A model generated the notes under the pieces. It did not search any database. It saw only the letters and a program-made list of their open reading frames with translations, and was not told the DNA's origin. Shown here piece by piece: positions 1,850 to 6,540 of a stretch of 6,540 bases of DNA. Source of the DNA: a virus (taxonomy: Duplodnaviria; Heunggongvirae; Uroviricota; Caudoviricetes); IMG/VR virus record IMGVR_UViG_2711768000_000006; one strand, 5' to 3'. Both the position numbers and the translations under genes were made by a program. The stretch's first letter is position 1; each line of letters opens with the position of its first letter.

Positions 1850-2908
1850 GTGCGGGTATTACTTCGACCTGTTCTGGTACCGGAACTCGGTCTGGTTATC
1901 GTTAAGCCAGGCCGTGAATCAATGTCAGCATTCCATAACGGCAGAATACTGGTGGAGCCGGAACCAAAAAGCATGCGTAATCTGCCGTCCGGGGTCGTTC
2001 CTGCCGCTCGCCAGCCGCTGGTGGAAGACAAAACATTGCTGCCGTTTTTCAGTAACGCACGGGTGATTCGTGCTGCTGGTGGTGCTGGTGCATTGTCTGA
2101 CTGGCTGTTGCGCCATATTAAATCCTGCCAGTGGCCACACGGCGATTATCATCACAGCGAAACCGTCATTCACCGTTATGGTACCGGCGCAATGGTGTTG
2201 TGCTGGCACTGCGACAACCAGCTGCGTGACCAGACATCCGAATCACTCGAGCAACTTGCTCATCAAAACCTGTCAGCATGGATGATTGACGTCATCGGTC
2301 ACGCAATAAGCGGTACGCAGGAGCGTGAATTATCTCTGGCTGAATTATCCTGGTGGGCGGTCCGCAATCAGGTGGCGGACGCGCTACCGGAAGCGGTATT
2401 ACGTCGTTCGCTGGGGTTGCGTGCGGAAAAAATTCGCTCTGTGTACAGTGAAAGCGACATCATACCGGGAGAGCAGACAGCCACCAGCATACTGAAGCAG
2501 CGCACAAAAAATATTGCGTTACTGCCTCACGTCCACCAGCAACAGAACCCACCACAGGAAAAGACGGTGGTCAGCATTGCCGTTGATCCGGAGTCACCGG
2601 CTCAGTATCTCCAGCGCCAGAAATCACAACGGGAAGAGATGCCTGTATACACGCGCTGGGTAAAAACGCAGAAATGCATGACGTGTGGCAATCAGGCAGA
2701 TGATCCGCATCACATCATTGGTCATGGACTGGGAGGGATGGGAACAAAGGCTGATGATTTGTTTGTTATTCCGTTATGCCGTAAATGCCGTAACGAACTA
2801 CATGCCGGAGTAAAAGATTTTGAAGAGAAACACGGCAGTCAGCTGTTGTTGCTGATTCGTTTTTTAATGCACGCGAGAAATTCGGGTGTTCTGAAGTGGA
2901 AAGCATAA
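1850..2908 (+). CDS. DUF968/YdfU-like prophage protein with a C-terminal HNH-like Cys/His motif
   Basis: 352-aa ORF. The C-terminus contains CMTCGNQADDPHHIIGHG...PLCRKCRNELHAG (CxxC...HH...CxxC...H). GTG start at 1850 follows GGAGG (1841-1845); an alternative ATG is at 1922. The stop TAA is immediately followed by the rusA ATG. Family assignment is from memory of YdfU-like proteins. Confidence 0.7.
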   Translation: MRVLLRPVLVPELGLVIVKPGRESMSAFHNGRILVEPEPKSMRNLPSGVVPAARQPLVEDKTLLPFFSNARVIRAAGGAGALSDWLLRHIKSCQWPHGDYHHSETVIHRYGTGAMVLCWHCDNQLRDQTSESLEQLAHQNLSAWMIDVIGHAISGTQERELSLAELSWWAVRNQVADALPEAVLRRSLGLRAEKIRSVYSESDIIPGEQTATSILKQRTKNIALLPHVHQQQNPPQEKTVVSIAVDPESPAQYLQRQKSQREEMPVYTRWVKTQKCMTCGNQADDPHHIIGHGLGGMGTKADDLFVIPLCRKCRNELHAGVKDFEEKHGSQLLLLIRFLMHARNSGVLKWKA

Positions 2909-3289
2909 ATGACCGAGCGCATAGAATTTGTTTTACCTTACCCGCCGACGGTGAACACTTACTGGCGTCGTCGTGGCAGCACATATTTTGTATCAAAAGC
3001 CGGGGAGCGTTATCGCCGGGCAGTGGCGCTTATTGTTCGCCAGCAGCGGCTGAAATTAAGCCTGTCCGGAAGGTTGGCAATAAAAATTATTGCAGAACCA
3101 CCGGATAAGCGCCGCCGTGACCTGGACAATATTCTGAAAGCGCCGCTGGATGCGCTGACGCATGCGGGGTTGCTAATGGACGATGAGCAGTTTGATGAAA
3201 TCAATATCGTTCGTGCTCAGCCAGTATCTGGTGGACGTCTGGGGGTGAAGATTTATCCCATAATGCTTGAAGGGCAGGTCAAAAAATGA
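2909..3289 (+). CDS. rusA: Crossover junction endodeoxyribonuclease RusA (Holliday junction resolvase)
   Basis: 126-aa product with RusA hallmarks: N-terminal LPYPPTVNTYWRRRG, the catalytic-region motif PDKRRRDLDNILKAPLDALTHAG, and C-terminal GGRL. Lies directly upstream of the Q candidate, as in lambdoid prophages. Confidence 0.9.
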   Translation: MTERIEFVLPYPPTVNTYWRRRGSTYFVSKAGERYRRAVALIVRQQRLKLSLSGRLAIKIIAEPPDKRRRDLDNILKAPLDALTHAGLLMDDEQFDEINIVRAQPVSGGRLGVKIYPIMLEGQVKK

Positions 3290-4107
3290 AACTGGAAGAT
3301 TTACCGAAATACTACTCCCCAAAATCCCCCGGCCTGACTGATGCATCGGCCTCAACGTCGAAAGATGCGCTGAGTATCACTGATGTGATGGCCGCGCAGG
3401 GCATGACACAGAATCGGGCTGAGATGGGGGTTTCTGCGTTCCTTGGGAAAATGGGCATTAGTATGAATGACAGAGAGCGGGCAACAGAATTGCTGACAGA
3501 ATATGCACTCAGTCGGTGTGATCGCGTGGCGGCGTTAAGAAAACTCCCGGCAGAAATAAAACCGGCAGTGATGCGTATTATGGCTTCGTATGCGTTTGAA
3601 GATTATGCCCGTAGCGCGGCGAGCAAAAAACAGTGCCCCTGCTGTCACGGAAAAAAATTTATTGAAAGCGAGGTTTTTACAAACAAGATCCAGTATCCGG
3701 ATGGTAAGCCGCCGGTATGGGCAAAGTGTACGAAAGGTGTGTATCCGTCTTACTGGGAAGAATGGAAAAAAGTCAGGGAGGTGGTAAAAGTTGCCTGTCC
3801 GGAGTGTGGCGGAAAGGGTGAGGTTTCCACCGCCTGTAAGGATTGCCGTGGGCGTGGTGTCGCCATTCATCGTGAAGAGTCGGTAAAACGTGGTATGCCT
3901 GTTATCAGAGACTGCCAGCGTTGTGGTGGTCGTGGCTATGAAAGACTACCATCAACGGAGGCATTTAATGCTATATGCGAGGTGACAAACCAGATAACAC
4001 GCGCGTCATGGGAAAAAACAGTTAAGAAATTTTATGATGCGCTGGTGACCCGGTTTGATATTGAAGAAGCATGGGCTGAGCGGCAGTTAAAAAAGGTAAC
4101 TAGGTAA
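3286..4107 (+). CDS. Putative late-gene antiterminator Q with DnaJ-like zinc-finger repeats
   Basis: 273-aa ORF whose ATG overlaps the rusA stop (ATGA). Contains CPCCHGKK plus three CxxCxGxG motifs (CPECGGKG, CKDCRGRG, CQRCGGRG). Sits between rusA and a pR'-like promoter and terminator, the canonical Q position. The assignment is positional plus motif-based, not a confirmed match. Confidence 0.6.
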   Translation: MKLEDLPKYYSPKSPGLTDASASTSKDALSITDVMAAQGMTQNRAEMGVSAFLGKMGISMNDRERATELLTEYALSRCDRVAALRKLPAEIKPAVMRIMASYAFEDYARSAASKKQCPCCHGKKFIESEVFTNKIQYPDGKPPVWAKCTKGVYPSYWEEWKKVREVVKVACPECGGKGEVSTACKDCRGRGVAIHREESVKRGMPVIRDCQRCGGRGYERLPSTEAFNAICEVTNQITRASWEKTVKKFYDALVTRFDIEEAWAERQLKKVTR

Positions 4108-4112
4108 CAAGG

Positions 4113-4140
4113 TTGATTTTTCCGGAATCTGTGGTAAATT
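4113..4140 (+). promoter_or_regulatory. pR'-like late promoter (-35 TTGATT 4113-4118, extended -10 TGgTAAATT 4132-4140)
   Basis: 16-bp spacer. The -10 TAAATT with an upstream TG resembles the lambda pR' -10. Begins 6 bp after the Q stop. Confidence 0.5.
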
Positions 4141-4187
4141 CGTTATAACGATGGGCGTTTTATGCCTGACGTTAGAAGAGTTTCTAC

Positions 4188-4212
4188 AACCCGCCGCCGA
4201 GCGGGTTTTTTA
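4188..4212 (+). terminator. tR'-like rho-independent terminator ending a roughly 65-nt leader RNA
   Basis: Stem AACCCGC (4188-4194), loop CGCCGA, stem GCGGGTT, then a T-run (4206-4211). Lies about 50-65 nt downstream of the predicted pR' start, analogous to the short terminated late leader of lambdoid phages. Confidence 0.55.
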
Positions 4213-4331
4213 TGACTGAAATCGCGTCAGTACAGTAAACGCGCTGGTGGCGGTGAATACCTGTCTTTCAGCTTGCTGGCTTTTTCGACAAGAGTTATTG
4301 GTGTGTCACGTTAACCGGAAAAGGAAAAGAC

Positions 4332-4529
4332 ATGCTAAAACAGCAGGATATGACAGAAACCGCCAGAGTGGTGTTTAATGAATTAAGCGTTACCGAACCG
4401 GCGACAGTCGGGGAGATAGCGCAGAATACTTACCTTTCACGCGAACGCTGCCAGTTAATACTGACCCAGCTGGTTATGGCGGGTCTGGCAGACTATCAGT
4501 TCGGTTGTTACAGACGCCTTCCGCAGTGA
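4332..4529 (+). CDS. Small hypothetical protein, 65 aa, possible winged-helix DNA-binding fold
   Basis: ATG with SD AAGGA 6 nt upstream. The segment VGEIAQNTYLSRERCQLILTQLVMAGLADY resembles a helix-turn-helix or winged-helix. A terminator-like hairpin overlaps the stop. Confidence 0.45.
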   Translation: MLKQQDMTETARVVFNELSVTEPATVGEIAQNTYLSRERCQLILTQLVMAGLADYQFGCYRRLPQ

Positions 4530-4540
4530 AGGCTTTTTTA
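4516..4540 (+). terminator. Rho-independent terminator-like hairpin overlapping the stop of the 65-aa ORF
   Basis: Stem GCCTTC (4516-4521), loop CGCAGT, stem GAAGGC (4528-4533), followed by TTTTTTATTT. Confidence 0.45.
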
Positions 4541-5778: not shown

Positions 5779-5854
5779 GGCCCTTTAGCTCAGTGGTGAG
5801 AGCGAGCGACTCATAATCGCCAGGTCGCTGGTTCAAATCCAGCAAGGGCCACCA
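5779..5854 (+). tRNA. tRNA-Ile2 (anticodon CAT, lysidine type), ileX/ileZ-like, with encoded CCA
   Basis: Manual cloverleaf: acceptor GGCCCTT/AAGGGCC, D-arm GCTC..GAGC, anticodon loop CTCATAA, T-arm GCTGG TTCAAAT CCAGC, discriminator A, CCA. Closely resembles E. coli ileX as recalled. By anticodon alone it could also be scored as Met. Confidence 0.8.
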
Positions 5855-5861
5855 TCACATA

Positions 5862-5938
5862 CCGCCATTAGCTCATCAGGAAAGAGCGCCAGCCTTCGAA
5901 GCTGGCTGCGCGGGGTTCAAGTCCCCGATGGCGGTCCA
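5862..5938 (+). tRNA. tRNA-Arg (anticodon TCG), with encoded CCA
   Basis: Manual cloverleaf: acceptor CCGCCAT/ATGGCGG (7 perfect pairs), D-arm GCTC..GAGC, anticodon stem CCAGC/GCTGG with loop CTTCGAA, T-arm CGGGG TTCAAGT CCCCG, discriminator T, CCA. The C1-G72 start is unusual but it folds cleanly. Confidence 0.7.
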
Positions 5939-5951
5939 TTATCTGCATCAT

Positions 5952-6009
5952 GCGTTGTTAGCTCAGCCGGACAGAGCAATTGCCTTCTAAGCAATCGGTC
6001 ACTGGTTCG
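5952..6009 (+). pseudogene. 3'-truncated tRNA-Arg (anticodon TCT), argU/argO-like; breaks in the T-loop
   Basis: Acceptor 5' strand GCGTTGT, D-arm GCTC..GAGC, anticodon stem ATTGC/GCAAT with loop CTTCTAA, and the T-stem 5' strand ACTGG followed by TTCG are intact. The expected T-stem 3' strand and acceptor 3' strand (ACAACGC) are absent and replaced by CTTTTGCGGGCCTTTTTTTT. Confidence 0.6.
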
Positions 6010-6227
6010 CTTTTGCGGGCCTTTTTTTTAAATGTCTCACAATTCAGACGGTTGACAGTTGTCTGTTTTGCGGGGAGTTTGTTAAAAGAAACTGGCATGG
6101 TGAATCCCCCTGTGCGGAGGGGCAATCAGCGAGTAGGTATATGGGATAATCGCGGATTCAGGTGCTGGTACTGAATTCACCGGGAGGCACCCGGCATCAT
6201 GCAATGGCACATAGCGCCACTCTCCAG

Positions 6228-6250
6228 CCCTCTCCGGAGGGGCTTTTCTG
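6228..6250 (+). terminator. Weak terminator-like hairpin (CCCTC / TCCG / GAGGG followed by GCTTTTCT)
   Basis: 5-bp GC-rich stem with tetraloop and a short T-rich tail, in an otherwise ORF-free region. Weak. Confidence 0.25.
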
Positions 6251-6433
6251 TGCCGGATACATCACAGTTTCTGGAACCTTAGGTACTACAGTATCAGTCA
6301 GGGTGCTATATTTTCAGATGTGATGAAAGCCTGTCAGCAGGCAGGGCGTATCGGAAATGACCCAGTAGAGAAAACGTTGACTCAGATACCGGTGCTGAGT
6401 TACCGGGAAACCGGCATCACATGACCGCTATCC

Positions 6434-6540
6434 TGAGGTGTACTGGCAATAGCGGACACTACCATTTGTTCTTTTTTTAAGCAGCCATCTGATGATATTT
6501 TTCCCTGAAGGCTGCCGGGGAGATATTCCCCAGACGAGAG
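6434..6540. repeat. Right arm of the perfect 107-bp inverted repeat (partner 1..107)
   Basis: Exact reverse complement of 1-107. Read on the minus strand it reproduces the upstream region and first 32 nt of the ORF at 76, then continues as only a 21-codon ORF (complement 6400-6465). Confidence 0.95.

Follow-up and report, generated by a model that had tools for sequence, protein, structure and literature searches.

A Q protein with zinc-finger repeats as the probable centre of a Q-lambda-type antitermination cassette in an E. coli lambdoid prophage

What kind of regulator is a protein that occupies the place of a lambdoid late antiterminator and at the same time carries repeats reminiscent of the DnaJ zinc finger? 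The question is raised by a stretch of 6,540 nucleotides (nt) from the IMG/VR virus record IMGVR_UViG_2711768000_000006, which as a whole is called the window in the following. A sequence-only reading of the window had placed a Q candidate with DnaJ-like CxxCxGxG repeats, a promoter resembling lambda pR' and a short terminated leader at positions 3286-4212, and had left the relationship of the protein to characterised Q families unclear. Our analysis indicates that this region is very probably an antitermination cassette of the Q-lambda type from a lambdoid prophage of E. coli. The zinc-finger-repeat Q is a standard, very common and annotated Q-lambda-family antiterminator, and the pR'-like promoter is its cognate one; it does not represent a new regulatory class, and the family question is closed.

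The assignment is carried by several lines of homology. The protein of 273 amino acids (aa) scores 179.2 bits (E=1.6e-53) in the Pfam family PF03589 (Antitermination protein Q), where the cut-off is 26.7, and this is the Q-lambda family, that of lambda Q itself (PMC9388147). In a phmmer search of PDB sequences it finds lambda Q (7ubm_Q) with E=3.5e-41, and the alignment consists of two collinear blocks, an ungapped one that joins query residues 1-113 to lambda Q 1-113 and another that joins residues 182-273 to lambda Q 116-207; the fold of the protein matches lambda Q as well. PHROG 127 ('anti-termination protein Q-like') is hit across the full 273-aa length with E=6e-112, identity to lambda Q amounts to about 40% (tblastn), and in an E. 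coli prophage of 96.8% identity RefSeq labels the gene 'antitermination protein'. All of 109 homologues have F52, G54, K55, W242, K247 and L268, and conservation of G39 and T272 among them is at least 90%. The three known Q families lack obvious mutual sequence similarity, Q21 and Q-lambda being structurally unrelated functional analogues (PMC9388147). The Q21 and Q82 families have the job and genomic position seen here (per PMC9388147), but neither Q21 (PF06530) nor Q82 (PF06323) is among the Pfam matches at E <= 0.01. Judged by its sequence, the open reading frame (ORF) is a bona fide Q-lambda-family protein; the relationship that had seemed unclear is settled, and the notion of a separate Q variant is abandoned.

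The surroundings of the gene agree with this assignment. Upstream of Q lie hok/sok, a gene for a DUF968 protein and RusA, and downstream follow a 65-aa ORF, a DNA methyltransferase of the N6/N4 type and two tRNAs; the 96.8%-identical prophage continues with esterase, holin, lysozyme and Rz. In lambda as well, Q follows the nin/RusA region and precedes the late genes, and in the phage record mEp460_ev081 lysis genes lie downstream of a Q that is 96% identical at the amino acid level. The layout of the late region probably resembles that of Stx phages. The earlier proposal of a Q gene in the canonical position holds up.

How far does the correspondence to lambda Q extend? Lambda Q, studied together with pR'/qut/tR' (PDB 4MO1, 7UBJ-7UBN; PF03589), and the window protein share a collinear succession of nozzle segment, body, arm and C-terminal helix, and the same four zinc-binding cysteines (Cys). 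The gene and the parts of its product are as follows.

3286-4107, plus strand: Q gene for the 273-aa antitermination protein of the Q-lambda family, from ATG start to TAA stop, stop included
3286-3417, plus strand: aa 1-44, counterpart of the lambda Q exit-channel 'torus/nozzle' segment, by ungapped alignment to lambda Q
3466-3624, plus strand: aa 61-113, first half of the helical 'body', aligned with lambda Q 61-113
3625-3828, plus strand: aa 114-181, 68-aa insert relative to lambda Q (gap between lambda residues 113 and 116), predicted second zinc ribbon
3829-3939, plus strand: aa 182-218, lambda-type zinc-ribbon 'arm', by alignment and invariant Cys
3940-4104, plus strand: aa 219-273, second half of the body with helix-turn-helix and C-terminal helix, aligned with lambda Q 153-207

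Residues 1-44 of lambda Q refold into a torus or nozzle at the RNA exit channel (PMC9388147). In the window protein, this segment carries the KSP, D-MAA-GM and G39 motifs that are conserved among homologues, and by homology it would form a comparable nozzle. In the AlphaFold2 (AF2) model, body helices span residues 60-80, 82-85 and 92-108, where block means of the predicted local distance difference test (pLDDT) are mostly at least 90, and further helices span residues 223-233 and 239-272. The lambda arm comprises residues 114-152 and is a type I shuffled zinc ribbon (PMC9388147); its ligands C118, C121, C144 and C147 correspond to C184, C187, C210 and C213 of the window protein, all four of which are invariant in the 109 homologues. 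Near the C-terminus, L268 and T272 are equivalent to lambda L202 and T206, which touch the flap-tip helix of RNA polymerase (RNAP), the contact residues there being 52, 56, 58, 202 and 206 (PMC9388147). F52, L268 and T272 are retained in the window protein, and the replacements at the two other positions (H56 to M, L58 to I) are conservative or hydrophobic.

Is the gene accompanied by the DNA and RNA elements of a late control region? The following elements were recognised between its stop codon and position 4212.

4113-4118, plus strand: -35 hexamer TTGATT of the pR' equivalent, read from the sequence, with 5 nt between the TAA stop and the hexamer
4119-4134, plus strand: 16-nt spacer TTTCCGGAATCTGTGG, probable Q-binding element (QBE), by conservation and co-variation with the recognition helix
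4132-4140, plus strand: extended -10 TGgTAAATT, whose hexamer TAAATT is the lambda pR' hexamer
4147-4155, plus strand: predicted start (A4147) together with AACGAT and GGG, the sigma-dependent pause element, 6 nt past the -10 as in lambda pR'
4161-4164, plus strand: TATG at +15 to +18, a sequence match to the pause-capture consensus, with the RNA 3' end at +17
4147-4173, plus strand: predicted 5'-terminal leader hairpin (RNAfold), in which +1 AACG pairs with CGUU at +24 to +27 around an inner stem GGGCGU/AUGCCU
4188-4212, plus strand: predicted intrinsic terminator, tR' equivalent, from a terminator scan and from minimum free energy (MFE) and centroid folds

The strongest evidence, overlooked in the sequence-only reading, is the presence of AACGATGGG at exactly the lambda spacing from the -10 hexamer. 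Lambda pR' can be written as TTGACT-17-TAAATT-TGACTC-AACGATGGG and the window as TTGATT-16-TAAATT-CGTTAT-AACGATGGG, so that the two agree in the -10 hexamer, in the length of the gap (6 nt) and in the -10-like hexamer with its GGG. The AACGATGGG element of lambda brings about the sigma-dependent promoter-proximal pause at which Q is loaded (PMC9388147, PMC9191641). The composite TAAWTT-N6-AAYGATGGG occurs once in the window, against 0.01 expected from shuffles; it is found once in each of 89 fetched loci, always on the strand of the Q gene, and in the loci of known layout it follows the Q match by no more than about 100 nt. The -35 hexamer has TTGACT as its counterpart in lambda and TTTACT in other genera. 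The promoter owes its credibility to the extended -10 TG, to the identity of its -10 hexamer with that of lambda pR' and to its conservation, and the earlier proposal of a pR'-like promoter just after the Q stop is upheld by TTGATT-16-TGgTAAATT together with AACGATGGG at the lambda spacing. One difference concerns the sequence in front of the pause element: lambda has a -35-like TTGACT just upstream of AACGAT for the repositioned sigma region 4, whereas the window has CGTTAT, a poor match. The pause-capture consensus is T-3 N-2 Y-1 G+1 (PMC9191641). A TNYG that would put the RNA 3' end at +15 or +17 occurs in 20 of 51 related leaders; it is not universal and lends weak support to pause capture.

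The viral_contigs scan returned only relatives that are 94-100% identical in Q and is informative just for micro-variation of the pause element. In these IMG/VR relatives (L082-L161), the pause hexamer takes the forms AACGAT, AATGAT, AATAAT, AACTAT, AAAGAT, AACAAT and GATGAT, all of which keep A2 and T6, the two key -10 positions.

Which part of the promoter might be recognised by the protein? The spacer comparison took in 36 distinct loci, whose genera include Escherichia, Klebsiella, Enterobacter, Kluyvera, Serratia, Pantoea and Erwinia and whose Q proteins are 49%-97% identical to that of the window. The spacer block TTTTCC[C/G]GAA-N-CTG is at least 90% conserved in these loci, above the -10 hexamer and the 6-nt gap. 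The spacer also changes together with the recognition helix: the helix ITDAIxLDTWKKSVKPFYD is paired with TTTTCCSGAAnCTGTG in the window group, LVPDLTDYQWYKGYADVI with TTGCATTTTTCAAAAAATATGG in a group of 250-aa Q proteins and LIPNLTQPTWSRTVKPLYD with TTGAATAAAATTGGG in lambda, and helices of the ITIDQWKR type go along with spacers that contain CACTTT. The 250-aa proteins, from E. coli and Shigella and from mEp460, SfV and Stx2c phages, belong to the same family and have four motifs and two ribbons, but they are only about 38-40% identical to the window protein, differ from it in helix and spacer, and have a shorter insert hairpin; their loci carry AACGATGGG at the same spacing, followed by a terminator. 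Because it is conserved across genera and changes with the type of recognition helix, the spacer between -35 and -10 is probably the Q-binding element. The spacer of lambda pR' between the same hexamers occupies the equivalent position, and we take it to hold the lambda QBE; the window spacer, and so presumably its QBE, is unlike that of lambda. The pairs of spacer and helix would thereby constitute a natural specificity series for QBE recognition of the Q-lambda type.

Most of the relatives outside Escherichia (L005-L039) have an inverted repeat, AAAATAGCnnnn...nnnnGCTATTT, in the 40-70 nt between the Q stop and the -35, which is absent from the window. Its inner bases co-vary (CTCAC/GTGAG versus CCTG/CAGG) and its 3' arm overlaps the -35 TTTACT; the repeat may be a terminator of the Q transcript or a regulatory site.

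The terminator begins 48 nt past the -10 and has a stem AACCCGC/GCGGGTT (4188-4207) of seven pairs, five of them G-C, with a 6-nt loop and a T-run that extends to about 4212. Scan and folds together confirm that a strong intrinsic terminator follows shortly after the promoter, and the short terminated leader is likewise retained as a prediction, of about 65 nt (4147 to about 4212). Most related loci have a G+C-rich inverted repeat with a T-run, by eye a terminator, at most about 75 nt after the pause element. The lambda leader is longer, at about 195 nt from +1 to the T-run that we read as tR' in the lambda sequence. A 22-codon ATG ORF that spans the terminator (4151-4219) was dismissed: it lacks a Shine-Dalgarno sequence, the corresponding frames of lambda and L005 are wholly different by eye, and its ATG lies within the pause element.

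How might the cassette work? By homology to lambda, we envision a scenario whereby sigma-70 RNAP would start at about 4147 from the extended -10 promoter and would pause some 16-17 nt downstream through renewed binding of sigma region 2, this time to the -10-like AACGAT of the non-template strand. As long as Q is absent, transcription would terminate at 4188-4212 and release the leader RNA of about 65 nt. Once Q has accumulated, its helix-turn-helix body and zinc-ribbon arm would bind the -35/-10 spacer TTTCCGGAATCTGTGG, and the protein would dock on the paused polymerase, where its N-terminal 44 residues, aided by NusA, would form the nozzle at the exit channel. Readthrough of 4188-4212 and of later terminators would then give access to the 65-aa ORF, the DNA methyltransferase and the tRNAs, and eventually to holin and endolysin, which lie beyond the window and are placed there by the gene order of the 96.8%-identical prophage. 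DNA binding, pausing, nozzle formation and readthrough are thus all ascribed to the window cassette by analogy with its lambda relatives.

What are the additional zinc motifs of the protein? It contains four motifs of the type CxxCxGxx, namely CPCCHGKK (aa 117-124), CPECGGKG (171-178), CKDCRGRG (184-191) and CQRCGGRG (210-217). The CPCC and three CxxCxGxG repeats that had been described are present, but CPCC is itself part of a degenerate CxxCxGxx, which brings the number to four. Motifs 3 and 4 are the lambda arm's own, and motifs 1 and 2 are carried by the 68-aa insert, which is placed exactly at the junction of body and arm. Of the four insert cysteines, C171 and C174 never vary among the 109 homologues, and the conservation of C117 and C120 is at least 90%. 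In the model, the knuckles C117/C120 and C171/C174 are connected by a long beta-hairpin (125-136/159-170) with a variable helical tip (144-157); the length of the hairpin differs among lineages, and in L066 it is almost gone while both knuckles are kept. This knuckle-hairpin-knuckle pattern agrees with the zinc-ribbon fold for which a structure prediction had been suggested, and the insert is most likely a second zinc ribbon with a variable tip, arranged in tandem with the lambda-type arm.

Since lambda Q operates without the insert, the extra ribbon would be an accessory module that is dispensable for the basic mechanism. It also does not set DNA specificity, because L047 from Pectobacterium combines a lambda-type helix and a lambda-type spacer with the insert. 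Residues 110-126 of lambda Q touch the zinc-binding domain of RNAP beta' (PMC9388147), and the extra ribbon adjoins the counterpart of these residues. The two-ribbon form is the majority in the family, and the single ribbon of lambda is a minority: four Cys motifs are found in about 30 of 46 near-full-length (195-300 aa) representatives of 50%-identity clusters, and two, as in lambda, in about six. At least 80% of the query is covered in 131 of 249 phage records, the lambda-like short form matching in two pieces with 78% coverage; examples of the long form are mEp460, SfV, ES18, ST104, phiEt88 and Stx2c phages. Lambda Q, the basis of all structural work, is thus a minority single-ribbon form. 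No study of the extra hinge ribbon was found in the literature searches made. Two ideas about its origin and role were given up. A recent internal duplication is not demonstrable, as an hhalign comparison of insert (aa 112-181) and arm (aa 180-225) yields one 9-residue CxxCxGxG[FY] motif at 24% probability. A role in compensating for the missing -35-like site for sigma region 4 was rejected because a TTGAC-like site accompanies the insert in L043, L045 and L047.

Could the leader contain an element beyond pause and terminator? The first 4-5 nt of the transcript, which are the RNA copy of the pause element, are complementary to about +20 to +27 (AACGA/UCGUU in lambda), and the inner stem combines GGG(C) with a downstream G(Y)CC across leaders. 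RNAfold places such a hairpin, starting from +1 or +2, in most of 52 distinct leaders, lambda included. In an unbiased MAFFT alignment of 47 leaders, the outer five-pair stem is 83% paired, compared to 12-46% with a slid partner. Its double-change cells number 12, where shuffles give 4.8 +/- 1.7 and none of 500 attains 12, in a test that relatedness can inflate. Distant lineages have apparently compensatory pairs (GAUGA/UCAUC, AACAA/UUGUU, AACAG/CUGUU, AUAA/UUAU). Point variants that near-identical E. coli prophages have in the pause element speak against the hairpin, for they are uncompensated in the stem. A conserved 5'-terminal leader hairpin is possible, and we regard it as a lead rather than a finding; literature searches, which covered the older lambda literature only in part, returned no description of it. 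A bolder version, to which we give a tentative place and which seems to us more doubtful than credible, would combine two features: a selected hairpin between the first 4-5 nt and about +20 to +27 throughout the Q-lambda family, stabilising the late mRNA or leader RNA or acting in Q loading, and a hinge ribbon that in most members provides an RNAP contact unseen in the lambda Q structures.

A number of observations weigh against a cassette of the proposed kind. The promoter hexamers agree with the consensus at only 4/6 positions each, and a generic sigma-70 scan, which needs 9/12, omitted the site at 8/12. Upstream of the pause element, where CGTTAT is found, there is no good -35-like site for sigma region 4. 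The zinc geometry of the insert is drawn from Cys conservation and predicted secondary structure. C53, H56 and L58 of the lambda Q flap-tip interface are replaced by L, M and I in the window protein, and substitution of C53 impairs lambda Q function (PMC9388147). The start of transcription, the pause, the binding of Q and the readthrough are each a prediction. Close E. coli relatives have point variants of the pause element (AATAAT, AACTAT, AAAGAT, AACAAT), and some copies of the cassette may be decaying in cryptic prophages. Conceivably, the window copy might itself be an inactive relic of this sort, in which the ORF is intact, the promoter, pause site or Q is dead, and the terminator merely ends the early-right transcript. 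Seven pause hexamers among relatives that are 94-100% identical in Q would be in line with such decay, as would the uncompensated changes in the leader, and many E. coli lambdoid prophages are defective. However, the window copy has the canonical AACGATGGG along with an intact ORF and an intact terminator, not one of the pause variants has lost A2 or T6, and the cassette is conserved over many genera and adjoins lysis genes in sequenced phage genomes. We therefore hold a relic to be improbable and a working Q-lambda-type cassette to be the better description of the region.

Alternatively, the protein might be a zinc-finger or chaperone-like protein of the DnaJ type rather than a transcription factor, its repeats forming a DnaJ cysteine-rich domain. 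The four CxxCxGxx motifs are spelled like those of that domain and of anti-TRAP, one family database entry (P0029) is named 'chaperone protein DnaJ', Foldseek lists DnaJA2 with E of about 1, and there are weak matches to DnaJ_CXXCXGXG (PF00684) and TIGR02349. These scores remain below the curated cut-offs, with 30.1 bits for PF00684 against 32.7 in Pfam and 27.9 bits for TIGR02349 against 377, whereas PF03589 is far above its threshold; anti-TRAP gives a weak local match (E=0.034). DnaJ moreover has a nested zinc topology, with motifs 1 and 4 and motifs 2 and 3 joined, and a J domain, whereas the window protein has tandem zinc sites, no J domain and no fold match to DnaJ. The DnaJ-like character proposed in the sequence-only reading is thus confined to the spelling of the motifs and does not extend to the domain, and the probability that we assign to a DnaJ-type protein is close to nil. 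A further proposal concerns the leader RNA and is compatible with antitermination by Q: the terminated leader (4147 to about 4212) could also be a trans-acting small RNA (sRNA) in lysogens. StxS, the pR'-tR' transcript of Stx phages, is an Hfq-bound regulatory sRNA, and such leaders have been proposed as a general source of sRNAs (PMC7547250). Lambda 6S RNA and StxS are short constitutive RNAs from the late promoter to the first terminator, and an RNA of this kind is predicted here, although it would be much shorter than the precursor of either. The leader folds into the 5' hairpin, a short central hairpin with a few unpaired flanking bases, and the terminator with its U-tail (-21.4 kcal/mol, z = -2.2). 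On the other hand, Rfam has no family for it, the sole match, Trp_leader at 21.8 bits against a cut-off of 41, being due to chance, and the sequence from pause element to terminator differs widely among genera, and we rate an additional role as an sRNA as unlikely.

How common is the cassette? The segment of Q plus leader is present with at least 80% coverage in 2479 of 5426 complete E. coli genomes, where it is labelled 'antitermination protein', and 90%-identity clusters of the window protein have thousands of members. Overall the family is narrow, with 234 representatives among 1.84 billion proteins. If the proposed mechanism applies, the cassette would control the late genes of prophages in nearly half of the complete E. 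coli genomes. A copy of the window gene that is 92% identical at the nucleotide level is labelled 'quuQ' in LC567834; literature searches on QuuQ/YdfT found nothing functional.

Several neighbours of the cassette were noted in passing. Upstream, a hok/sok type I toxin-antitoxin module occupies 947-1272 of the window: Rfam sok is matched with 112 bits at 947-1122, and a 70-aa ORF (1060-1272) has a Hok/Gef domain over residues 25-66 (3e-23), the RefSeq annotation of the related prophage giving hokD as a 51-codon gene. Just past hok, a weak isrK-like match (1281-1362; 25.8 bits, cut-off 50) ends in a strong terminator (1341-1358); IsrK is an sRNA of Gifsy-1 and is connected with a promoter under antitermination control. 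The DUF968 protein encoded upstream of RusA (window 1850-2908; L162 3068-4117) has an HNH-like C-terminus and no PF03589 match, and the phage record LR597641 wrongly calls it 'Phage antitermination protein Q'.

On the downstream side, the first ORF of the late transcript (4332-4529, 65 aa) belongs to PHROG 331, of unknown function, and has a weak TrmB-type winged-helix match of 18 bits, below the cut-off. A second terminator-like hairpin (4516-4533) overlaps the 3' end of this ORF and precedes the DNA methyltransferase gene. Three tRNA stretches follow, at 5779-5854, 5862-5938 and 5959-6024. The tRNA(CAU) is called as Met by ARAGORN and is a tRNA-Ile in the RefSeq annotation of the related prophage, and it may be read as an Ile tRNA of the lysidine type; next comes tRNA-Arg(UCG), and then a degenerate tRNA-like stretch (22.5 bits) where the related prophage has a second tRNA-Arg. 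Towards the end of the window, the prophage sRNA STnc100 is found at 6066-6255 (Rfam, 123.6 bits) and has a terminator of its own (6226-6244); a second STnc100-like match at 6294-6482 is weak (21.8 bits, below threshold). STnc100/PasD sRNAs have been linked to PF03589 Q genes (bioRxiv 10.64898/2026.05.13.724894).

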